Origin: a virus
Taxonomy: Duplodnaviria; Heunggongvirae; Uroviricota; Caudoviricetes
Reading direction: 5' to 3' (one strand)
DNA length: 38,587 nt
Virus record (IMG/VR): IMGVR_UViG_3300029650_000167
The position numbers and the translations under genes were made by a program. This document shows positions 4,588-33,622 of the stretch, piece after piece (positions within the stretch are counted from its first letter, which is position 1; the number at the start of each line of letters is the position of its first letter). The notes beneath the pieces were generated by a model that was not told the DNA's origin, did no database searches, and saw nothing but the letters and a program-made list of their open reading frames with translations.

Positions 4588-4602
4588 TTACCTTTCAGGT
4601 AA
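4588..4602. promoter_or_regulatory. operator-like palindrome TTACC-TTTCA-GGTAA
   Basis: Perfect 15-bp inverted repeat in the divergent region between tailspike and the LexA-box gene; on minus strand flanked by TTGCAA and TATCTA at -35/-10 spacing. Confidence 0.6.
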
Positions 4603-4641
4603 TTTGCAAAACGTGCTGGATAGCAAACAAATTATTTGCTA

Positions 4642-4657
4642 CTGTATAAATATACAG
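4642..4657 (+). promoter_or_regulatory. LexA box (SOS box) CTGT-N8-ACAG
   Basis: TACTGTATAAATATACAGTT at 4640-4659 matches the enterobacterial LexA consensus TACTGTATATATATACAGTA at 18 of 20 positions; overlaps an extended -10-like TGtATAAAT; 22 nt upstream of SD GGAG. Confidence 0.75.
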
Positions 4658-4678
4658 TTATTGCATGGAGAAGATAAG

Positions 4679-5085: not shown

Positions 5086-5251
5086 TGGTTTTTTTATGCG
5101 TTAAGCACAGCTATATCCGAATTATGGTGGGCTGGGCAGGGGTCCGAAAGGACGCCGGTACCACTTAGGCCGGTACGCCAACCTTGTCCAGTTCACCACC
5201 AGTAATTGGCGTTGCGGTGGTGATTAAAATCACTAAGTGGAGATAACCACC

Positions 5252-6938: not shown

Positions 6939-6960
6939 AAACAAGGCCGCGAAAGCGGCC
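6934..6960 (-). terminator. rho-independent terminator for the minus-strand membrane-protein gene
   Basis: GGCCGC-GAAA-GCGGCC hairpin; on the minus strand it is followed by TTGTTTTT. Confidence 0.5.
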
Positions 6961-6961
6961 T

Positions 6962-6973
6962 GTGACATGTCAC
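6962..6973. other. perfect 12-bp palindrome GTGACATGTCAC (copy 1 of 3)
   Basis: Identical 12-mer also at 24567 and 26832; overlaps the TGA stop of the minus-strand ORF 6970-7266. Confidence 0.5.
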
Positions 6974-23508: not shown

Positions 23509-23545
23509 TTGACATTTAACGCGCGAATTATTACCTTTCAGGTAA
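23509..23545 (+). promoter_or_regulatory. promoter (-35 TTGACA) with overlapping operator palindrome TTACC-TTTCA-GGTAA
   Basis: Consensus TTGACA at 23509-23514, 16 bp later the perfect operator motif (23531-23545) occupies the -10/+1 region; points toward the tRNA. Confidence 0.5.
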
Positions 23546-23867
23546 CTAAAGAGTTCATTCCGGTTACTAACCTGACTGGCCTGTCGTTAAATTGAACAGG
23601 TGGAGTGAGCTTTTATTTTGAGCAGTACGGCGTATGGCACATGCGACGATAGCGGTCTGGATACGTTTAAGTGGCACCCTCCCTTGCTCGGGCAAACGAA
23701 CCAGGTAGCCGGAATGTGCAAGTCGAGCGGTTTTATTCCGCGCACGGGGATTCACCATCCCGGCGATTCGGTGTGACGCCTCGGAAGAGACGAGGGTACA
23801 ACGATGAGAGCATTTATGGAGCCGCGACAAAGTGTGGCGCCTTAACAGGCTAAGTGCTCTCAGCGTT

Positions 23868-23944
23868 GTGGCATTAGCTCAGTTGGACAGAGCAACCGCC
23901 TTCTAAGCGGTTGGTCGCAGGTTCGAATCCTGCATGCCACGCCA
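23868..23944 (+). tRNA. tRNA-Arg (anticodon UCU, reads AGA)
   Basis: Hand-folded cloverleaf: acceptor GTGGCAT/ATGCCAC, D-arm GCTC/GAGC, anticodon stem ACCGC/GCGGT with loop CTTCTAA, T-arm GCAGG-TTCGAAT-CCTGC, discriminator G and encoded CCA. Confidence 0.85.
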
Positions 23945-23987
23945 GAATCACGCCTAAGGACCGTGATACCAGAAGTTCCAGGTGCTT

Positions 23988-24029
23988 GGCGGTGATAGTT
24001 TCCCTTGAAGGACTATCACCGCCCTTTTT
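23988..24029 (+). terminator. rho-independent terminator after tRNA
   Basis: 12-bp stem GGCGGTGATAGT/ACTATCACCGCC followed by CTTTTT. Confidence 0.75.
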
Positions 24030-24107
24030 ACAGCAGGACGCCATTGCGATGACTTCATGCTGTAAACCCGTACAGCCACGGAAGGCATAACTCATTGCTT
24101 CCAGTTC

Positions 24108-24131
24108 GCCCGGTTCGCCGGGCATTTTTTT
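24108..24131 (+). terminator. second rho-independent terminator/attenuator
   Basis: GCCCGG-TTCG-CCGGGC hairpin followed by seven T, ending 11 nt before the SD of ORF 24143. Confidence 0.65.
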
Positions 24132-24142
24132 AAGGTGAGATC

Positions 24143-24562
24143 ATGAAGACAATTGATATGTTGGCTAAGTATCTAAATGAATGGCCATTAAAATATTCTC
24201 GTATCGTTCAGGCTGAAGACTGCATTTTTTATGGCGTTTTTGCTGATAATGAAATGCATTACGAAGTAATTCAGAGTGAGGGACTGGCCGGGTTAACTCT
24301 TAGCGAAGACCATGGTACTAGCGTTACGTTCCATGACTGGATAACAGCACAACGTTCTGAAATGGAAAAAGGCGATGTGTTTGATATTTCTCGCGCTGTT
24401 TACGCTAAAGCAAAAAGTGATAATGATTACATGAGCGAACACTTATACAACATGAAGTTACAATGCCTGCATGCGGCGCTTATTCAGAATGGGCACTTCG
24501 ATAAAACAAGTGCCATCAATATTGCGGAAGCCATCAACGCTGGATTTAATGCCATTAAATAA
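24143..24562 (+). CDS. hypothetical protein, AT-rich orphan moron
   Basis: 139 aa with SD AAGGTGAG; opposite orientation to flanking terminase/portal genes; low GC. Confidence 0.5.
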   Translation: MKTIDMLAKYLNEWPLKYSRIVQAEDCIFYGVFADNEMHYEVIQSEGLAGLTLSEDHGTSVTFHDWITAQRSEMEKGDVFDISRAVYAKAKSDNDYMSEHLYNMKLQCLHAALIQNGHFDKTSAINIAEAINAGFNAIK

Positions 24563-24566
24563 CACC

Positions 24567-24578
24567 GTGACATGTCAC
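24567..24578. other. perfect 12-bp palindrome GTGACATGTCAC (copy 2 of 3)
   Basis: 5 nt after the stop of ORF 24143-24562 and before its terminator. Confidence 0.5.
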
Positions 24579-24582
24579 AAAC

Positions 24583-24609
24583 AGCCAGCCGATGAGCTGG
24601 CTTTGTTTT
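24583..24609 (+). terminator. rho-independent terminator
   Basis: AGCCAGC-N6-GCTGGCT hairpin followed by TTGTTTT. Confidence 0.65.
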
Positions 24610-24652
24610 ATCCTCATCAGAGGATATCAACGACATTATCCCCACCAGCGGA

Positions 24653-26128
24653 TTAAGCATAGGGATCGTAATCTGTGATGGCCTTGCCTTGCTGGTTCTG
24701 CTGCCCGGGAATTCGCAGACGCTTCGACACAGGGAAAGCAAACGTCAGCAGTAGCGCATCGCCTTTACCCGGCGAACGCCCAAGTCGTTCTTTGATATCT
24801 TCCTTCGGTTCGATAACGATTTTACCGTCCACGCGAACTTTGTACTCTGCCGCCGACAGATCGTCCGCTGTTTCCTGGTCATCCAGCATCCCGCCCAACC
24901 TCAGCCATGTCTTGCATGAGTTGAACATCTCCCCGCGCTTGTTGAGCATCTGAGGGTCAGTTGACGCACCACCGAACGGAACAAGTTGCCATGTGCGCCC
25001 CCAGCCGTCACCGATTGACTTCAGACCGGTTCCGTAACCGAAGTCGATGAACACCGCGTCAGCCTGATACTGGTCTTCAAAGTCAGCGATACGCTTCGCC
25101 ATAATCAGATCGTCAGTGGTCTTGTTGCCAGTCCATAGCACCTTACTATGCAACCCCTGCCGCAGGTATATCACCGCGTCATCAACGCCTGAATATGCCG
25201 GGTCAACACCGATTATCACCGGAGCATGAGCCACCTGCGCAGCGGTTACCACCCGTTTCATTGCCTCATCAGTAAGACCGGTAGGGATAAACTGCAATTC
25301 AGATGCATCAGGGAATATGCCGCGCACACGGATTTTAACGAAGTCGCTGTCTTCCCCGTAGTCATCAACCCATTTCTGCAACTGCTGTTTGTTAGTACCT
25401 TCCACCGTCCGGCTGTCAATCTGCGCAGTTTTCCAGCGGTGTTTGTATTTGCGGAAACATTCGCGAAAACGCCCGGTATTACGTGTAGGGTTTCCGAACG
25501 CCACCCAGATAATCTCAGTGTCTTCGTCCGTAAGCGCACCCTCAGCAACTTCCCACACCAGATCCGCAATGTTCGACGCTTCATCGAATACCACGATGAT
25601 GCGTTTGCGCTCGTTGTGTAGTCCGGCGAATGCCTCAGTGTTGTGCTCAGACCAGGGGATTGCGTCAGCTCGCCACCGCTTGTCGTGCCCAGGATCATTG
25701 CTGTACATCGCGGTAGCGGTACAGGTAAACCAGTCTTTCGTGATGGCAAGGTTCGACCACTTGATAATTTCCGGCCAGGTCTTCGTTCGTAGCTGGTTGT
25801 CGGTGTTGGCGGTCACCACAACCTTACAATCCTCGCAAGTGGACATGCCCCAGTTGATCAGCATTGAGATGAATGCGGATTTACCAATACCATGACCAGA
25901 AGCACGTGCCAGCATAAGCGGCTGATAGCGCGTCTCTGGATTCTGCAGGTGATCACGTATCTCTCGGAACGCATCAGCCTGCCACTTACGTGGACCGGTG
26001 GCATGTGCTAATTCAGTCCCCTCTTCCCCCCACGGGAACGCATAGAGGGCATAGCCAAGCGGATCGTGAGTGAACCCTGCAATATCCTCGATCAACTGCT
26101 CTTCAGGAGATAACGCTGTATCTGTCAC
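24653..26128 (-). CDS. terminase large subunit
   Basis: 491 aa with Walker A-like GHGIGKS near the N-terminus and acidic nuclease-like C-terminal region; GTG start overlapping the small-subunit stop. Confidence 0.85.
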   Translation of the reverse strand: MTDTALSPEEQLIEDIAGFTHDPLGYALYAFPWGEEGTELAHATGPRKWQADAFREIRDHLQNPETRYQPLMLARASGHGIGKSAFISMLINWGMSTCEDCKVVVTANTDNQLRTKTWPEIIKWSNLAITKDWFTCTATAMYSNDPGHDKRWRADAIPWSEHNTEAFAGLHNERKRIIVVFDEASNIADLVWEVAEGALTDEDTEIIWVAFGNPTRNTGRFRECFRKYKHRWKTAQIDSRTVEGTNKQQLQKWVDDYGEDSDFVKIRVRGIFPDASELQFIPTGLTDEAMKRVVTAAQVAHAPVIIGVDPAYSGVDDAVIYLRQGLHSKVLWTGNKTTDDLIMAKRIADFEDQYQADAVFIDFGYGTGLKSIGDGWGRTWQLVPFGGASTDPQMLNKRGEMFNSCKTWLRLGGMLDDQETADDLSAAEYKVRVDGKIVIEPKEDIKERLGRSPGKGDALLLTFAFPVSKRLRIPGQQNQQGKAITDYDPYA

Positions 26129-26721
26129 TGATTACCATCCTGACGTTCTTTGAGTCGCTTCCTGGCTGCTGCTATGCGATCAGCAATTGTCACATTCACA
26201 TTAACATCCAGACGTTCTTTGAACGCGTTGACATCAACATGCTTACCAATCAGTTCTAGGTTCTTCACCTTGTCAGGCCATTTAATTTTTTTGAGGATTG
26301 TCTCTATCGAATCCTCGTTCATGTTCATGATGGTCGATGACAGATCAAAGCCACTAAGCGTAGTGCGCCAGATTTTCGGCCACTCACGGATTGGTTTAAG
26401 GCTCCCATCGTCGTTGAGGATGTCGATCACGTCCATCTGGTCGATCTCCACCAGGCGCATGAGAACGTAATCAGCACTGACGCGCATTCGTTTGTTGCGC
26501 TCCTCCATCAACTCGGCAATCCGTTTTTGAATGCGTTCATCGCGCATCATGACGCTGGCTTTAACTGCCGCTGTATTTGGGGAGAATCCTGCGTTAATCG
26601 CAGCCTGAGTCTGGTTTTCAGGCGTTTTGATGTATGACTGGCAATAAGCCTCCTGCATTGCTGTGAGCGGCTTAAATTGCGTTGATTTGCGTTTATAGGT
26701 TTTAGGTTCAGCAGGCATCAT
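26125..26721 (-). CDS. terminase small subunit
   Basis: About 198 aa from ATG 26721 (SD GGTGG); basic N-terminal region; the track ORF start at 26799 would translate the operator and terminator region. Confidence 0.6.
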   Translation of the reverse strand: MMPAEPKTYKRKSTQFKPLTAMQEAYCQSYIKTPENQTQAAINAGFSPNTAAVKASVMMRDERIQKRIAELMEERNKRMRVSADYVLMRLVEIDQMDVIDILNDDGSLKPIREWPKIWRTTLSGFDLSSTIMNMNEDSIETILKKIKWPDKVKNLELIGKHVDVNAFKERLDVNVNVTIADRIAAARKRLKERQDGNQ

Positions 26722-26738
26722 AACCACCGTGGTAATTG

Positions 26739-26753
26739 TTACCGTTGTGGTAA
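26739..26753. promoter_or_regulatory. operator-like palindrome TTACC-GTTGT-GGTAA upstream of terS
   Basis: Perfect motif 18 bp upstream of the terS start, flanked by additional GGTAA/TACC half-sites. Confidence 0.5.
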
Positions 26754-26760
26754 TAATACC

Positions 26761-26790
26761 ATGCAAAATAAAGCCGCCATAGTTGGCGGC
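26761..26790 (-). terminator. rho-independent terminator between early-left operon and late operon
   Basis: On the minus strand GCCGCC-AACTAT-GGCGGC followed by TTTATTTTG. Confidence 0.55.
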
Positions 26791-26831
26791 AGTATTCAAA
26801 CCCCATCAAATTCATCATGCATAATCTACTC

Positions 26832-26843
26832 GTGACATGTCAC
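26832..26843. other. perfect 12-bp palindrome GTGACATGTCAC (copy 3 of 3)
   Basis: Overlaps the TGA stop of ORF 26840-27181, about 90 bp upstream of the late operon. Confidence 0.5.
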
Positions 26844-27181
26844 ACTATTAATTTCGTTTCATGCCAGCCTTTAGTCACCCAGCATTGCGAGTCACCATCA
26901 CACGGGCATGAATTCACAGGAACTCTCTCGCCGCACTTACCGCAACGTTTTCTGCTGATCGATTTTATACGCCCGTGCACGCGTGCATCATCCTGGCGGA
27001 TCAGTAACGCTATATACTCACCAAATTCGTAAGGCGCACGCCCGGGGCGACGCGTGGCACAGTTACGCTCCAGCATTTCAATTTCCTGAGCATCAAGCAC
27101 AATTTCCAGCTTACGCACACCAGATGCAGCTTGTCTGGCTCTCTGAGCGGCTTTGCGCTCTGCTGCTGATTTAGCCATCAA
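26840..27181 (-). CDS. zinc-ribbon protein at the Q-equivalent position (candidate late regulator)
   Basis: 113 aa, basic N-terminus, C-terminal CGKCGERVPVNSCPCDG cysteine cluster; last gene before the terminator and terS. Confidence 0.4.
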   Translation of the reverse strand: MMAKSAAERKAAQRARQAASGVRKLEIVLDAQEIEMLERNCATRRPGRAPYEFGEYIALLIRQDDARVHGRIKSISRKRCGKCGERVPVNSCPCDGDSQCWVTKGWHETKLIV

Positions 27182-27452
27182 TATTCACCTTTATCGCGAA
27201 CACCTTTACCGGTTTATCTCCGAAGTGCGGATGTGTGATTGTCTTGATTTCATACCCTTCATACGGGACGTCTATTCTGCGACTGGAGTCGTCGCGCTTC
27301 GGATATCCCTTTGTGATAATCAGGCGGTCATATTCCCGGAACATGATTCGCTTATTCCAGTAGTCATTACACAAGCGATACTCTTCCGTTTTCTCCCCGC
27401 GAATCATGGCATCGAAGTATTCACCTTTGACGGCAAGTTGCAGGTTAGCCAT
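27171..27452 (-). CDS. small beta-barrel protein (ASCH/DUF3850-like)
   Basis: 93 aa; pattern KGEYFDAM..GEKTEEYR resembles ASCH-like phage proteins; recalled from memory, not searched. Confidence 0.4.
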   Translation of the reverse strand: MANLQLAVKGEYFDAMIRGEKTEEYRLCNDYWNKRIMFREYDRLIITKGYPKRDDSSRRIDVPYEGYEIKTITHPHFGDKPVKVFAIKVNIDG

Positions 27453-27732
27453 TACCTTCCTCCTTTGGCTTGTGAATTTGTATCGTCATGCCGCTTTGAG
27501 TGGTGACTACAACGACAGAACCAGGCTGAAGACTGTTAAGATTGAATGCTTCGTAAAACGAAGCCAAGGCCAGCGCTTTTTTATTCTTTCGGTTCCACCA
27601 ACGCCATCCATTGCTACAGGCTACACTGACAATCCACTGTCCACTCCTGTAAGCCATATAAAACCAGATGAGCAAAACCTGAATGAATGCTATCCAGTCA
27701 ATAATCGTATATTTCGCGAAGGAGACCATCAA
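27445..27732 (-). CDS. hypothetical membrane-anchored protein
   Basis: 95 aa with one N-terminal hydrophobic segment. Confidence 0.4.
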   Translation of the reverse strand: MMVSFAKYTIIDWIAFIQVLLIWFYMAYRSGQWIVSVACSNGWRWWNRKNKKALALASFYEAFNLNSLQPGSVVVVTTQSGMTIQIHKPKEEGNG

Positions 27733-28457
27733 TTAACCTCCTGCGGCGGTTCTGGTAGAGGCATCCAGTGAGTTACATGTGCCCCGTAATGATTCCAGAA
27801 CGACGCAACTGGCGCACTGTCTCCATCAGGGACAACCCAGTAATCGTGATGAACTTTATTATTAAGCCCATCAAACACCAGATACTCTTTACAACTTCCG
27901 GGAATGTTCTCAGGCATTCGCTCACTACAGCTTATCCAACCATCCGGAGTTACCGGAAGCGAGAACGGCAGCACATCTCTGTGAACAAGTTTTTGCTGTG
28001 ACAGGTTATCCAGAACTTTCTGTACTGCTGCATCACCGAATACACCAAGCGCATCTGCCATAACTCCTACAACCTGATAAGCCTCAGCGCATACCGTGGA
28101 TAAACCATCCGGAATTACCGGAGAGTTGCCATTTACATCGAAGTTTGGCTCTGCGTCCTGAACCAGGAGGATGTAACCATTCTTGGCTGTATCAAGTTCT
28201 AACGCCTCGGTGACGGTGCCGAAATAGCGATTACCTAAATCAGCATCACAAGTGCTTACATCAATGGAAACTTCCATGCCCTCGATTAATTCTGGCAAGT
28301 TGTAAGTTTGGCTTACAGGCTCTGCTTCCAGCGATGCCAGAGCAATCCGTGCCAGTTCTTCCGCTTCTTCTGCTGGCAGTACAACGTTGCTACCAGGTCC
28401 GTATGTTTCGCGCCACTGCTTGATTGTCAGTAGTCGCTCTTTGGTTATAGTGGTCAT
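27729..28457 (-). CDS. hypothetical protein with DUF551-like C-terminal region
   Basis: 242 aa; C-terminal Trp/Pro-rich segment ending WMPLPEPP typical of a conserved enterobacterial prophage domain. Confidence 0.45.
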   Translation of the reverse strand: MTTITKERLLTIKQWRETYGPGSNVVLPAEEAEELARIALASLEAEPVSQTYNLPELIEGMEVSIDVSTCDADLGNRYFGTVTEALELDTAKNGYILLVQDAEPNFDVNGNSPVIPDGLSTVCAEAYQVVGVMADALGVFGDAAVQKVLDNLSQQKLVHRDVLPFSLPVTPDGWISCSERMPENIPGSCKEYLVFDGLNNKVHHDYWVVPDGDSAPVASFWNHYGAHVTHWMPLPEPPQEVN

Positions 28458-28969
28458 GCCGCGTTTCCTTCTTTCTTATTAACAATTACACCGTCATATA
28501 TTTCATTAAGGTGCCCTCTCAACTCCATGCGCCTTAATGCAGATAACATGTAATCGCATTCAACCTGCTTATTTCCAGTAAATGGCTTATCGTCAGGATT
28601 ACCCCAACAGCAATTACCCTTGGGCCACCCATGTACTTTCCGTACTCTTCCGTTAACAACGTGAAGTAATCCCCAGCCAGGTGGTAAATCCTCAATTGAA
28701 ATAATTCCCGGCTCACTAATAAAGAATCGCCAGTCGCCCATTCCAAGAGACGGATTTTTACGAAAACGCTTTTTTCTATCTGCTAACAAGTCAGCACGAG
28801 AACACTTCGCTTCTATCAGGCATGATGCTGAATTTCTGAATCCCATAGCATCTGGCTGTTCTCCGGTACTGGTTACAGCTATAAAGCGGTCATGAAAACA
28901 AACCTTGAACCCGTTGCGCTTAAGGAACTTGTACGCAATCTGACAGAGTTCGCGGTGTGTTAACGCCAT
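28454..28969 (-). CDS. putative PD-(D/E)xK-fold nuclease
   Basis: About 172 aa from ATG 28969 (MALTHREL); motifs QPDAMGF and LIEAKCS at the spacing expected for the D...ExK catalytic core. Confidence 0.4.
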   Translation of the reverse strand: MALTHRELCQIAYKFLKRNGFKVCFHDRFIAVTSTGEQPDAMGFRNSASCLIEAKCSRADLLADRKKRFRKNPSLGMGDWRFFISEPGIISIEDLPPGWGLLHVVNGRVRKVHGWPKGNCCWGNPDDKPFTGNKQVECDYMLSALRRMELRGHLNEIYDGVIVNKKEGNAA

Positions 28970-30458: not shown

Positions 30459-30473
30459 TTACCTCTGAGGTAA
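30459..30473. promoter_or_regulatory. operator-like palindrome TTACC-TCTGA-GGTAA
   Basis: Perfect motif overlapping the 5' UTR and SD of gene 30111-30455. Confidence 0.5.
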
Positions 30474-30520
30474 TTAAAAACCACATAAGACACGAAATCA
30501 ATAGATTTTAGAATATTTTA

Positions 30521-30535
30521 TTACCTAACAGGTAA
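30521..30535. promoter_or_regulatory. operator-like palindrome TTACC-TAACA-GGTAA inside a promoter spacer
   Basis: On the minus strand TCGACA - operator - TAAAAT, so the palindrome fills the 16-bp spacer between -35 and -10. Confidence 0.6.
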
Positions 30536-32903: not shown

Positions 32904-33488
32904 ATGAAAAGTATCCAGGACGTCCGCAGGCAAAATCTCAACGACTTGATCGACCGTGAATTCAATGGTGTTCAGACGCGGATGGCTGAAAAACTTGGAA
33001 CTCAGGCAAATCTGGTAAACCGCTGGGCTCTTGGCAAGAAGGTTATCGGCGACCAGGTTGCACGAAAAATTGAAGCTGCCGCCAATAAACCCCGTAACTG
33101 GCTTGATATCGATCGCTCGCTTTCTCAGGAAGGTTTTCAGCCTGTCGGCCCAAGCGACATTGGCCAGCTGGCGGCTCACAACCTGGAACGCTGGATGAGC
33201 GAAAGCCGCGACCTTTCAACACAGGGAAAACTTCACCGCGCATCCGGCGTAGCCCAGGTGACAATCAGCCGCCTGTTAAACAATGAGGTCAGCGTTTCCA
33301 TTTCCACCCTGGAGAATGTTGCATCCGCATTCGGGCGTCACGGCTATGAATTACTGATTCACCCGCACGACCCTGCGACCATCAACTATGATCGCTCGCG
33401 CTACGCATTGTTACCCGAAACCGAGAAAGCAAAGATCGAAAGTTACATTGAATTTGTCATCAACCAGAACGAAAAAAACAAACAATAA
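32904..33488 (+). CDS. prophage repressor with tandem XRE-type HTH domains, no peptidase domain
   Basis: 194 aa; two HTH-like segments (TRMAEKLGTQANLVNRWALGKK and ASGVAQVTISRLLNNEVSVSISTLENVA); no Ser/Lys S24 autocleavage motif; divergent from cro-like gene. Confidence 0.7.
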   Translation: MKSIQDVRRQNLNDLIDREFNGVQTRMAEKLGTQANLVNRWALGKKVIGDQVARKIEAAANKPRNWLDIDRSLSQEGFQPVGPSDIGQLAAHNLERWMSESRDLSTQGKLHRASGVAQVTISRLLNNEVSVSISTLENVASAFGRHGYELLIHPHDPATINYDRSRYALLPETEKAKIESYIEFVINQNEKNKQ

Positions 33489-33545: not shown

Positions 33546-33560
33546 TTACCTAACAGGTAA
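33546..33560. promoter_or_regulatory. operator OL-like site (TTACC-TAACA-GGTAA)
   Basis: Perfect motif 20 bp upstream of a TTGACA -35 hexamer. Confidence 0.55.
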
Positions 33561-33579
33561 TTTTTTTAACTCATATCTA

Positions 33580-33607
33580 TTGACATCAAACCATATACGC
33601 ATAATTA
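33580..33607 (+). promoter_or_regulatory. PL-like promoter (TTGACA - 16 bp - TAATTA)
   Basis: Consensus -35 and AT-rich -10 at canonical spacing, immediately followed by an operator palindrome. Confidence 0.5.
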
Positions 33608-33622
33608 TTACCTCAACGGTAA
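33608..33622. promoter_or_regulatory. operator OL-like site (TTACC-TCAAC-GGTAA)
   Basis: Perfect motif at the predicted transcription start of the plus-strand early operon. Confidence 0.55.

Follow-up and report, generated by a model that had tools for sequence, protein, structure and literature searches.

The DNA described here, IMG/VR virus record IMGVR_UViG_3300029650_000167, is a stretch of 38,587 nucleotides (nt) that was analysed at its full length and is referred to as the window. Its subject is the junction at which the early operon runs into the late genes, where a member of the gp49 protein family is encoded upstream of terS and where a terminator, a proposed promoter, and repressor operators are packed into the space between the two genes. 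A megablast search with positions 26100-28500 retrieved the Uetakevirus podophages vB_EcoP_PAS61 (97%), TL-2011b, phiV10, ZX5, and phiv142-3, and the window is assigned by sequence to a temperate epsilon15/phiV10-like (Uetakevirus) phage of E. coli, of the phiV10/PAS61 type. Phages of this kind often occur as prophages in E. coli, Salmonella, Klebsiella, and relatives and are used as reporter phages; to our knowledge, the timing of their late genes has not been worked out. The papers on ZX5 and Kapi1 contain no statement on late control, and a literature search for Uetakevirus transcriptomes gave nothing relevant.

All genes around the junction are located on the minus strand, as are all junction features described by a first-pass annotation of the sequence. 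They follow the order Ea22-like gene, a gene for 198 amino acids (aa), DUF551, DUF4752, a 93-aa gene, the 112-aa gp49-family gene, terS, and terL; in the usual epsilon15 orientation, the same stretch appears as a rightward early operon running into the late genes. The first-pass annotation had placed a gene for 113 aa at 26840-27181. The gene is real, although an open reading frame (ORF) of that length has to start from TTG at 27181, and the ATG at 27178 is the likely start, giving a product of 112 aa (26840-27178) that matches the length of hundreds of homologues. Its start overlaps the stop of the preceding gene (27171-27452) by 8 nt. As the last gene of an early operon running into terS, it occupies the position that Q has in lambda, as had been proposed. 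The first gene of the late operon, terS (26125-26718, minus strand), encodes 197 aa from the second ATG, the start also annotated in TL-2011b, and matches Pfam Terminase_2 with E=1e-29.

Downstream of the gp49-family gene, an intrinsic terminator is predicted on the minus strand at 26764-26790. It is composed of a GC-rich hairpin with a 7-bp stem and a 4-nt loop (GCCGCCA-ACUA-UGGCGGC, 26790-26773), followed by the U-tract UUUAUUUU, which extends to about 26765 with U at 7 of 8 positions. The hairpin has a stability of -13.8 kcal/mol (z = -3.8 against shuffled sequences, none of 200 being as stable), and the terminator reported earlier at 26761-26790 was essentially right. Its conservation was examined in an alignment of the junction from 16 relatives, drawn from a collection that comprised phiV10, epsilon15, SPC32H, PAT1, BUCT554, a Klebsiella prophage, and species-level prophages of a genome scan (designated by L numbers). 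The terminator is present in 13 of the 16, with 90% of the alignment cells in paired state and some G-U variants; in the Rahnella-type sequences, the outer pair is A-U in place of G-C, a double change, and the loops are different. BUCT554, L097, and L103 have no terminator; there, an inserted gene (moron) ends directly at the promoter described below. Because these three relatives retain the promoter and operators without it, the terminator would be a conserved but dispensable insulator and no obligatory checkpoint of late transcription.

The minus-strand sequence immediately past the U-tract is gcaTGgTATTATTACCACAACGGTAA, in which an extended -10 element, TG-g-TATTAT (26753-26761), is proposed as the promoter of terS, P_terS, with a predicted start near 26746; the last T of the -10 element is at the same time the first T of the operator that follows. 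It had been stated earlier that no convincing -35/-10 pair precedes terS, and a promoter scan agrees with this, as its only match is GTGACA-18-CATGAT upstream of the terminator, a weak match that overlaps the palindrome discussed below and is absent from epsilon15-type relatives; what had been missed is the extended -10 element TGgTATTAT at 26761-26753. This element has no -35 partner, since the terminator occupies the position concerned. Across the 16-relative alignment, the mean column identity is 70%, and the invariant columns are exactly TG, TA, AT, TTAC, and GGTAA, with variation at the base after TG (g, t, or a) and at the third and fourth positions of the hexamer. The bases that vary are those that the consensus of an extended -10 element tolerates, which counts in favour of a promoter, and the TG one base upstream of a TAnnnT hexamer is found at a conserved position. 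The same fusion of a -10 element with an operator occurs at two other places in the window, at 33608 (TTGACA-17-AATTAT|TACC) and at 30473 (TTGATT-17-TTTAAT|TACC), both with a -35 element, and distant prophages of Providencia, Proteus, and Morganella carry TTGAAT/G-17-CATAAT before terS at the same place and distance. Judging from these patterns, the relatives examined most likely have a separate promoter for terS.

The proposed promoter is followed by two operators of the prophage repressor Rep. O1, TTACCACAACGGTAA (26739-26753), is a perfect TTACC-N5-GGTAA dyad whose equivalent in epsilon15 is annotated as protein_bind 'repressor'; it had been recognised in the first-pass annotation, which overlooked a second copy, O2, TTACCACGGTGGTTA (26721-26735). 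The latter has one mismatch, lies 18 bp centre-to-centre from O1 over the Shine-Dalgarno sequence and start codon of terS, and is conserved in epsilon15, SPC32H, and phiV10. Within the whole window, 13 such operators were counted against 0.71 expected, a number reached in none of 100 shuffles. Their arrangement is syntenic between the window, epsilon15, SPC32H, and phiV10, with two operators before terS, one between the portal block and a moron, and one at the divergent ant/tailspike region, while further syntenic operators flank rep or precede the ea-gene block. The window encodes Rep on the plus strand (32904-33488), with operators on both sides of the gene; aligned at full length, the protein is 42% identical to SPC32H Rep (E=2e-53), the structure of which has been solved, as noted in the epsilon15 record. 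An over-represented, syntenic dyad is thus found together with a Rep homologue, as expected for operators of the SPC32H/epsilon15 type, with binding predicted, and Rep is presumed to bind the TTACC-N5-GGTAA sites.

In the mechanism proposed for terS, the early operon would end at the terminator, and a sigma-70 promoter of the extended -10 type would follow at once. The two adjacent operators would cover this promoter from the last base of the -10 element (about -7) to about +26, and in a lysogen, an SPC32H-type Rep bound to both would shut off the packaging and head operon directly. Once Rep is removed, RNA polymerase would start at P_terS, downstream of the terminator, which would mainly serve to insulate terS from upstream transcription. 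With its own Rep-repressed promoter, terS would therefore require neither Q-type antitermination nor a dedicated activator. The first-pass annotation had proposed that late transcription needs either antitermination through the terminator or activation by the zinc protein encoded upstream, a requirement that is not supported in view of the conserved extended -10 element between the terminator and terS, the three relatives without the terminator, and the distant relatives with a full -35/-10 pair. The portal and tailspike blocks also have operators close to where they begin (23531 and 4588, respectively), which suggests that the late region may be a string of separately Rep-controlled units. 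Such an architecture would be unlike the lambda cascade, in that each transcription unit, packaging included, would carry operators of the prophage repressor, with terminators insulating the units from one another.

The junction is for the most part ordinary, and much of it has already been annotated in epsilon15. RefSeq record NC_004775.2 labels gp49 as 'transcriptional regulator; similar to N15 gp46', annotates a rho-independent terminator at the record end, and places a protein_bind 'repressor' at 12-27, upstream of terS, with more repressor sites flanking the repressor gene. Epsilon15 shares with the window the gene order, palindrome, hairpin, and operator half-sites; it differs in that the window contains a short ORF remnant between palindrome and terminator and has the hexamer TATTAT where epsilon15 has TACTAT. 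The palindrome, the promoter, and the second operator are not annotated in that record. As far as could be found, neither the assignment of the extended -10 element nor the module of gene plus palindrome has been described earlier, and both are regarded as modest, testable leads.

The mini-ORF mentioned above (26796-26822, minus strand; ATG CAT GAT GAA TTT GAT GGG GTT TGA) encodes MHDEFDGV* and ends 5 nt before the terminator stem. The pattern MxDEFDG(F/V)* is kept with third-position changes in L099, L100, L105, and L106, and the peptide resembles the C-terminus (..DDEFKLI*) of a moron found at the same site in other relatives, with GATGAATTT shared between them, so that the mini-ORF is probably the remnant of such a moron. 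It is relevant to an explanation without any separate late promoter, according to which terS would be expressed by read-through of a leaky or ribosome-suppressed terminator, as a ribosome stopping at the end of the mini-ORF could mask the 5' arm of the hairpin, and the operators would act only as a roadblock in the lysogen. An ORF does end 4-8 nt before the stem in the window, L096, L099, L100, L102, L105, L106, and KpST512, and the third-position variation of the mini-ORF and the missing -35 element would both be compatible with such a mechanism. However, epsilon15, SPC32H, PAT1, and L098 keep the terminator without an ORF ending next to the stem, the resemblance to a moron points to a deletion remnant, the hairpin is a strong one whose tract has U at 7 of 8 positions, and the invariant TG/TA/AT pattern would be left without an explanation. 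Expression of terS by read-through alone is accordingly considered very improbable.

The protein encoded upstream of terS was characterised with the aid of 51 diverse homologues. Cys79 and Cys82 are invariant, Cys99 is present in at least 90%, and a further Cys is found at 91 or 93, which bears out the C-terminal Cys cluster reported at first as both real and conserved. The Cys spacing of the 112-aa protein, C-x2-C-x8-C-x7-C, differs from the C-x2-C-x22-C-x4-C of Ogr. An AlphaFold model with these homologues as input has a predicted local distance difference test (pLDDT) score of 93; in it, residues 5-19 are helical, 20-29 extended, and 30-42 and 52-74 again helical, with the Cys knuckle and a last helix (100-108) behind them, corresponding to a layout of a basic N-terminal helix, a ribbon-helix-helix (RHH) domain, a Cys4 knuckle, and a C-terminal helix. 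The order strand-helix-helix is that of the RHH (MetJ/Arc/CopG) superfamily, and the protein is accordingly modelled as an RHH domain joined to a Cys4 zinc knuckle, very probably constituting a DNA-binding regulator.

Homology searches with the protein gave a match to PHROG 536, 'transcriptional regulator', no Pfam family at E<=0.01, and no match to Q (PF06530, PF06323) or Ogr/Delta (PF04606) even at E<=10, so that the profile comparison suggested in the first-pass annotation speaks against both types. Positive controls were recovered by the same profiles, with N15 gene 40 matching PF06323 at 1e-110 and Yersinia phage gp54 matching PF04606 at 4e-21. In NCBIfam, a weak match to the LexA-regulated protein YbfE was obtained (E=0.05). 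A search of the PDB with the single protein sequence matched nothing, while in a profile search of the same database the C-terminal half weakly resembled the DksA/TraR zinc fingers of YbiI and TraR (E 0.08-0.1; hhalign 79%), a resemblance that fold searches did not confirm. The gp49 family is small, with 151 clusters at 50% identity, and when viral contigs were scanned with the single protein, every relative retrieved had at least 96% identity.

The genomic positions of the family were surveyed in 80 species-level loci from the genome scan, with 39-81% protein identity, a total of 412 kb, and about 10 gene ends per 5-kb locus. A terS of the Uetakevirus type lies downstream of the homologue in only 18 of them. 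In Pectobacterium phage ZF40, the homologue comes after two methyltransferase genes and is followed by NinB, an HNH gene, and gp25, which its record labels Q-like and for which the Pfam search performed here gave no match. The homologue of N15 is gene 46, far downstream of Q (PF06323, 1e-110), and in a P2-like Yersinia phage it comes after gpA, the same phage having a true Ogr (PF04606, 4e-21). Lambdoid prophages carry it upstream of DUF1367 and a Q-family gene, with Phage_antitermQ present in L104; in prophages of Pantoea and Erwinia it is followed by xis-int or by the end of the prophage, and in Xenorhabdus and Providencia it occurs in P2-like contexts. The common denominator of these positions appears to be the last gene of an early operon rather than the gene before terS, and the gene, together with the palindrome described below, is a portable module that ends early operons in at least five phage types. 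Because homologues coexist with Q and Ogr and no profile match was obtained, the protein is not regarded as an equivalent of either. DNA methyltransferase genes are often immediate neighbours of the gp49-family gene in prophages other than Uetakevirus (ZF40 gp20-21; L104/L109 489-2501; L114 1747-2508; L144 3643-4821).

A second element travels with the gene. The palindrome GTGACATGTCAC, listed in the first-pass annotation as the third of its copies, occupies 26832-26843, where it overlaps the TGA stop codon of this gene, and is a candidate binding site. Two further exact copies occur in the window, one at 24567-24578, located 4 nt past the stop of a plus-strand moron gene beside a bidirectional hairpin at 24582-24610 downstream of terL, and one at 6962-6973, located after the last gene of the tail block and 1 nt before a strong minus-strand terminator at 6943-6960, both being syntenic in SPC32H and phiV10; about 0.002 copies would be expected by chance in 38.6 kb (38587/4^12). 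Each of the three has a stop codon on one side and a hairpin on the other, the hairpins being 41, 3, and 1 nt away, and at the two further copies there is no room for a promoter before the terminator. Among the 80 species-level loci, a perfect GTGAC-N2-GTCAC was found within -30 to +80 of the homologue stop in 45, compared with about 0.01 expected (80 x 111 x 4^-10), usually at -1 or, where the stop is TAA or TAG, at +5 to +9. The rest of the 412 kb contains only 19 matches even with one mismatch allowed, and outside Uetakevirus (62 loci) the motif hardly occurs anywhere but at the stop of the gp49-family gene. An origin as a side-effect of the coding sequence was ruled out, as in many loci where the gene ends with TAA or TAG the palindrome comes 5-14 nt after the stop.

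Individual phages illustrate the same association. In ZF40, TGTGACATGTCACA begins 1 nt past the homologue stop, and the stop is spanned by TTGTGACGCGTCACAA in the Yersinia phage and by GTGACTGGTCAC, with a centre of its own, in N15. Exactly three copies of its own 12-mer are present in each of the window, SPC32H, ZF40, and N15, and phiV10 has two exact copies and one with a single mismatch. Across the loci, the half-sites GTGAC and GTCAC never change, the central pair does, and no compensatory changes were seen; half-sites without covariation are expected for recognition by a protein rather than for an RNA stem. From this co-location we infer that the palindrome is probably the binding site of the 112-aa protein itself, and a candidate site for a widespread, uncharacterised family of phage proteins (about 150 clusters at 50% identity) would offer a handle on the function of that family.

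Some of the copies are arranged differently. In ZF40 (L176; 12-mers at 5125, 7622, and 14944) and N15 (L177; 28550, 33237, and 39269), the two extra copies bracket the immunity/replication region, some of them inside coding sequence (ZF40 gp08 and the cII-like gp12; N15 repA), a placement unlike that of the terminator-adjacent Uetakevirus copies. Some homologues without GTGAC-N2-GTCAC (L132, L146, and L152; Xenorhabdus) have instead a conserved GTGTTGCGTAT(A/T/G)ACGCGGCAT just after the stop, which includes a GCGT-N3-ACGC dyad; in their RHH strand residues, they do not differ from palindrome-bearing relatives.

Insertions at the junction separate the two sets of elements. Between the palindrome and the terS promoter, BUCT554 (L093, 783-1189), KpST512 (L094, 890-1221), L096, L097, L102, and L103 carry a small gene with its own TTGACT promoter and LexA box (TACTGT-N8-ACAGTA). 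The inserted gene differs by phage, being assigned to a UmuD-like PHROG in BUCT554 and to PHROG 2100, of unknown function, in the Klebsiella prophage (KpST512), and the gap is read as a moron insertion site under predicted SOS control. In all six, the palindrome keeps to the gp49-family gene, whereas the terminator, promoter, and operators, where present, keep to terS. That the palindrome serves to activate the terS promoter from upstream was rejected, given the variable spacing and the morons inserted between the two.

In another explanation, the palindrome would not be the binding site of the protein but a cassette-boundary or processing element, such as a moron recombination joint or an RNA-level signal, that travels with the gene. 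The immediate insertion of the LexA-box morons behind it, the fact that the other two Uetakevirus copies mark the 3' ends of unrelated genes and have morons beside them, and the lack of covariation between the RHH strand residues and the site would be in line with such an element. On the other hand, its near confinement to the stop of a single gene outside Uetakevirus, the copies of ZF40 and N15 inside coding regions, and the invariant half-sites around a varying centre argue against it, and dyads of 12 bp are typical targets of RHH dimers or tetramers in the Arc/MetJ/CopG family. A boundary or processing function is thus regarded as quite unlikely.

The gene and the palindrome, placed on its own stop and at two other operon ends, would therefore form a module distinct from that of terS, in which the 112-aa protein would regulate transcription at operon junctions. 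RHH proteins are mostly repressors, and the sites are found where operons end, either next to a terminator or shortly before a moron promoter; for these reasons, a function as repressor or roadblock is considered more likely than one as late activator.

The opposite assignment, in which the zinc protein is itself the late regulator, would have it bind the GTGACATGTCAC sites before terminators and either confer Q-like read-through, loaded at a DNA site, or activate a weak terS promoter. Its gene is the last early gene before terS, and the three palindromes lie between stop codon and hairpin on the path of late transcription. Several observations weigh against the scheme proposed here, some of them also counting for a late regulator: all three Uetakevirus palindromes adjoin terminators on that path and would also fit a late-transcription role; no recognised late regulator (Q, Ogr, or Mu C) is annotated in epsilon15 or phiV10, which leaves room for gp49 or a PerC-like early protein; P_terS is without a -35 element and matches its hexamer at 5 of 6 positions, so that it may be weak and still need an activator; Vibrio phage K308 has a copy of the palindrome 31 nt before terS; the Yersinia phage has only one perfect copy; and loci with the palindrome have the same RHH beta-strand residues as loci that lack it, giving no sign of covariation in specificity. 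The weak likeness of the C-terminal half to the RNA polymerase-binding zinc finger of TraR/YbiI could be added to the points in favour of a late regulator. Conversely, the protein has no homology to Q or Ogr, its homologues coexist with one or the other and sit far from late operons, and the palindrome stays with the gene and not with terS when a moron intervenes. The distance between palindrome and promoter varies by 13 nt to more than 400 nt, three relatives do without the terminator, and the extra sites of ZF40 and N15 are found inside early genes and not at late promoters. That the protein is the dedicated late regulator is on balance unlikely, and since the present interpretation is drawn from sequence, the protein may nevertheless have some role in late expression.

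Taken together, the favoured interpretation, to which a probability of roughly 60% is assigned, is that the early operon would end at the terminator, that a Rep-operated extended -10 promoter would start the packaging operon, that other late blocks would have operators of their own, and that the 112-aa protein would be a separate RHH-zinc regulator acting at its palindromes. A more far-reaching proposal would treat the gp49 family as a new class of regulator (RHH plus Cys4 zinc) in the form of a portable cassette of gene and site, which at the 3' ends of operons would control RNA polymerase by read-through or enforced termination, possibly via a TraR-like contact with the polymerase, and which would supply the missing late switch of Uetakeviruses, phages without Q and Ogr; this is viewed as a doubtful extension.

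Among known systems, the lambda Q/PR'/tR' region likewise has a small early-operon protein just upstream of the late genes and a terminator between early and late genes, and lambda Q also binds zinc; in the window, however, the proposed promoter is located downstream and not upstream of the terminator and bears repressor operators, and homology to Q is lacking. P2 Ogr and P4 Delta are likewise small Cys4 proteins of temperate phages, from which the 112-aa protein differs in its Cys spacing, its RHH domain, and the lack of an Ogr_Delta match. Relative to RHH regulators such as P22 Arc and Mnt, CopG, AmrZ, the TacA/ParD antitoxins, and E. coli YbfE, it adds the N-terminal helix and the Cys4 knuckle with its following helix, and its candidate site is at the 3' end of a gene rather than in a promoter; similarity to any characterised RHH protein is below significance. 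Late activators of the RinA/ArpU type in Gram-positive siphophages occupy an analogous place, as the last early gene immediately upstream of terS, but their fold is unrelated, no homology was found, and most gp49-family genes are not next to terS.

Additional features related to Rep control were observed elsewhere in the window. Two promoters with a -10 element fused to a Rep operator, each with a second operator 62 bp upstream, are located at 30459-30535 and 33546-33622 and thus divide the early operon into several units that would each be under separate Rep control, set apart by terminators. A LexA box, TACTGTATAAATATACAGTT, at 4640-4659 lies 38 nt from the Rep operator at 4588-4602, between the tailspike gene and plus-strand genes; ant of SPC32H is reportedly under dual control by LexA and Rep, an arrangement that the pair at 4588-4659 resembles. 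Finally, a plus-strand moron at 23509-24610 separates terL from the portal block. The Rep operator at 23531-23545 overlaps its TTGACA promoter, and besides a tRNA-Arg(tct) (23868-23944) the moron contains a gene for 139 aa (PHROG 4846, of unknown function) that ends 4 nt before the second palindrome and a terminator.

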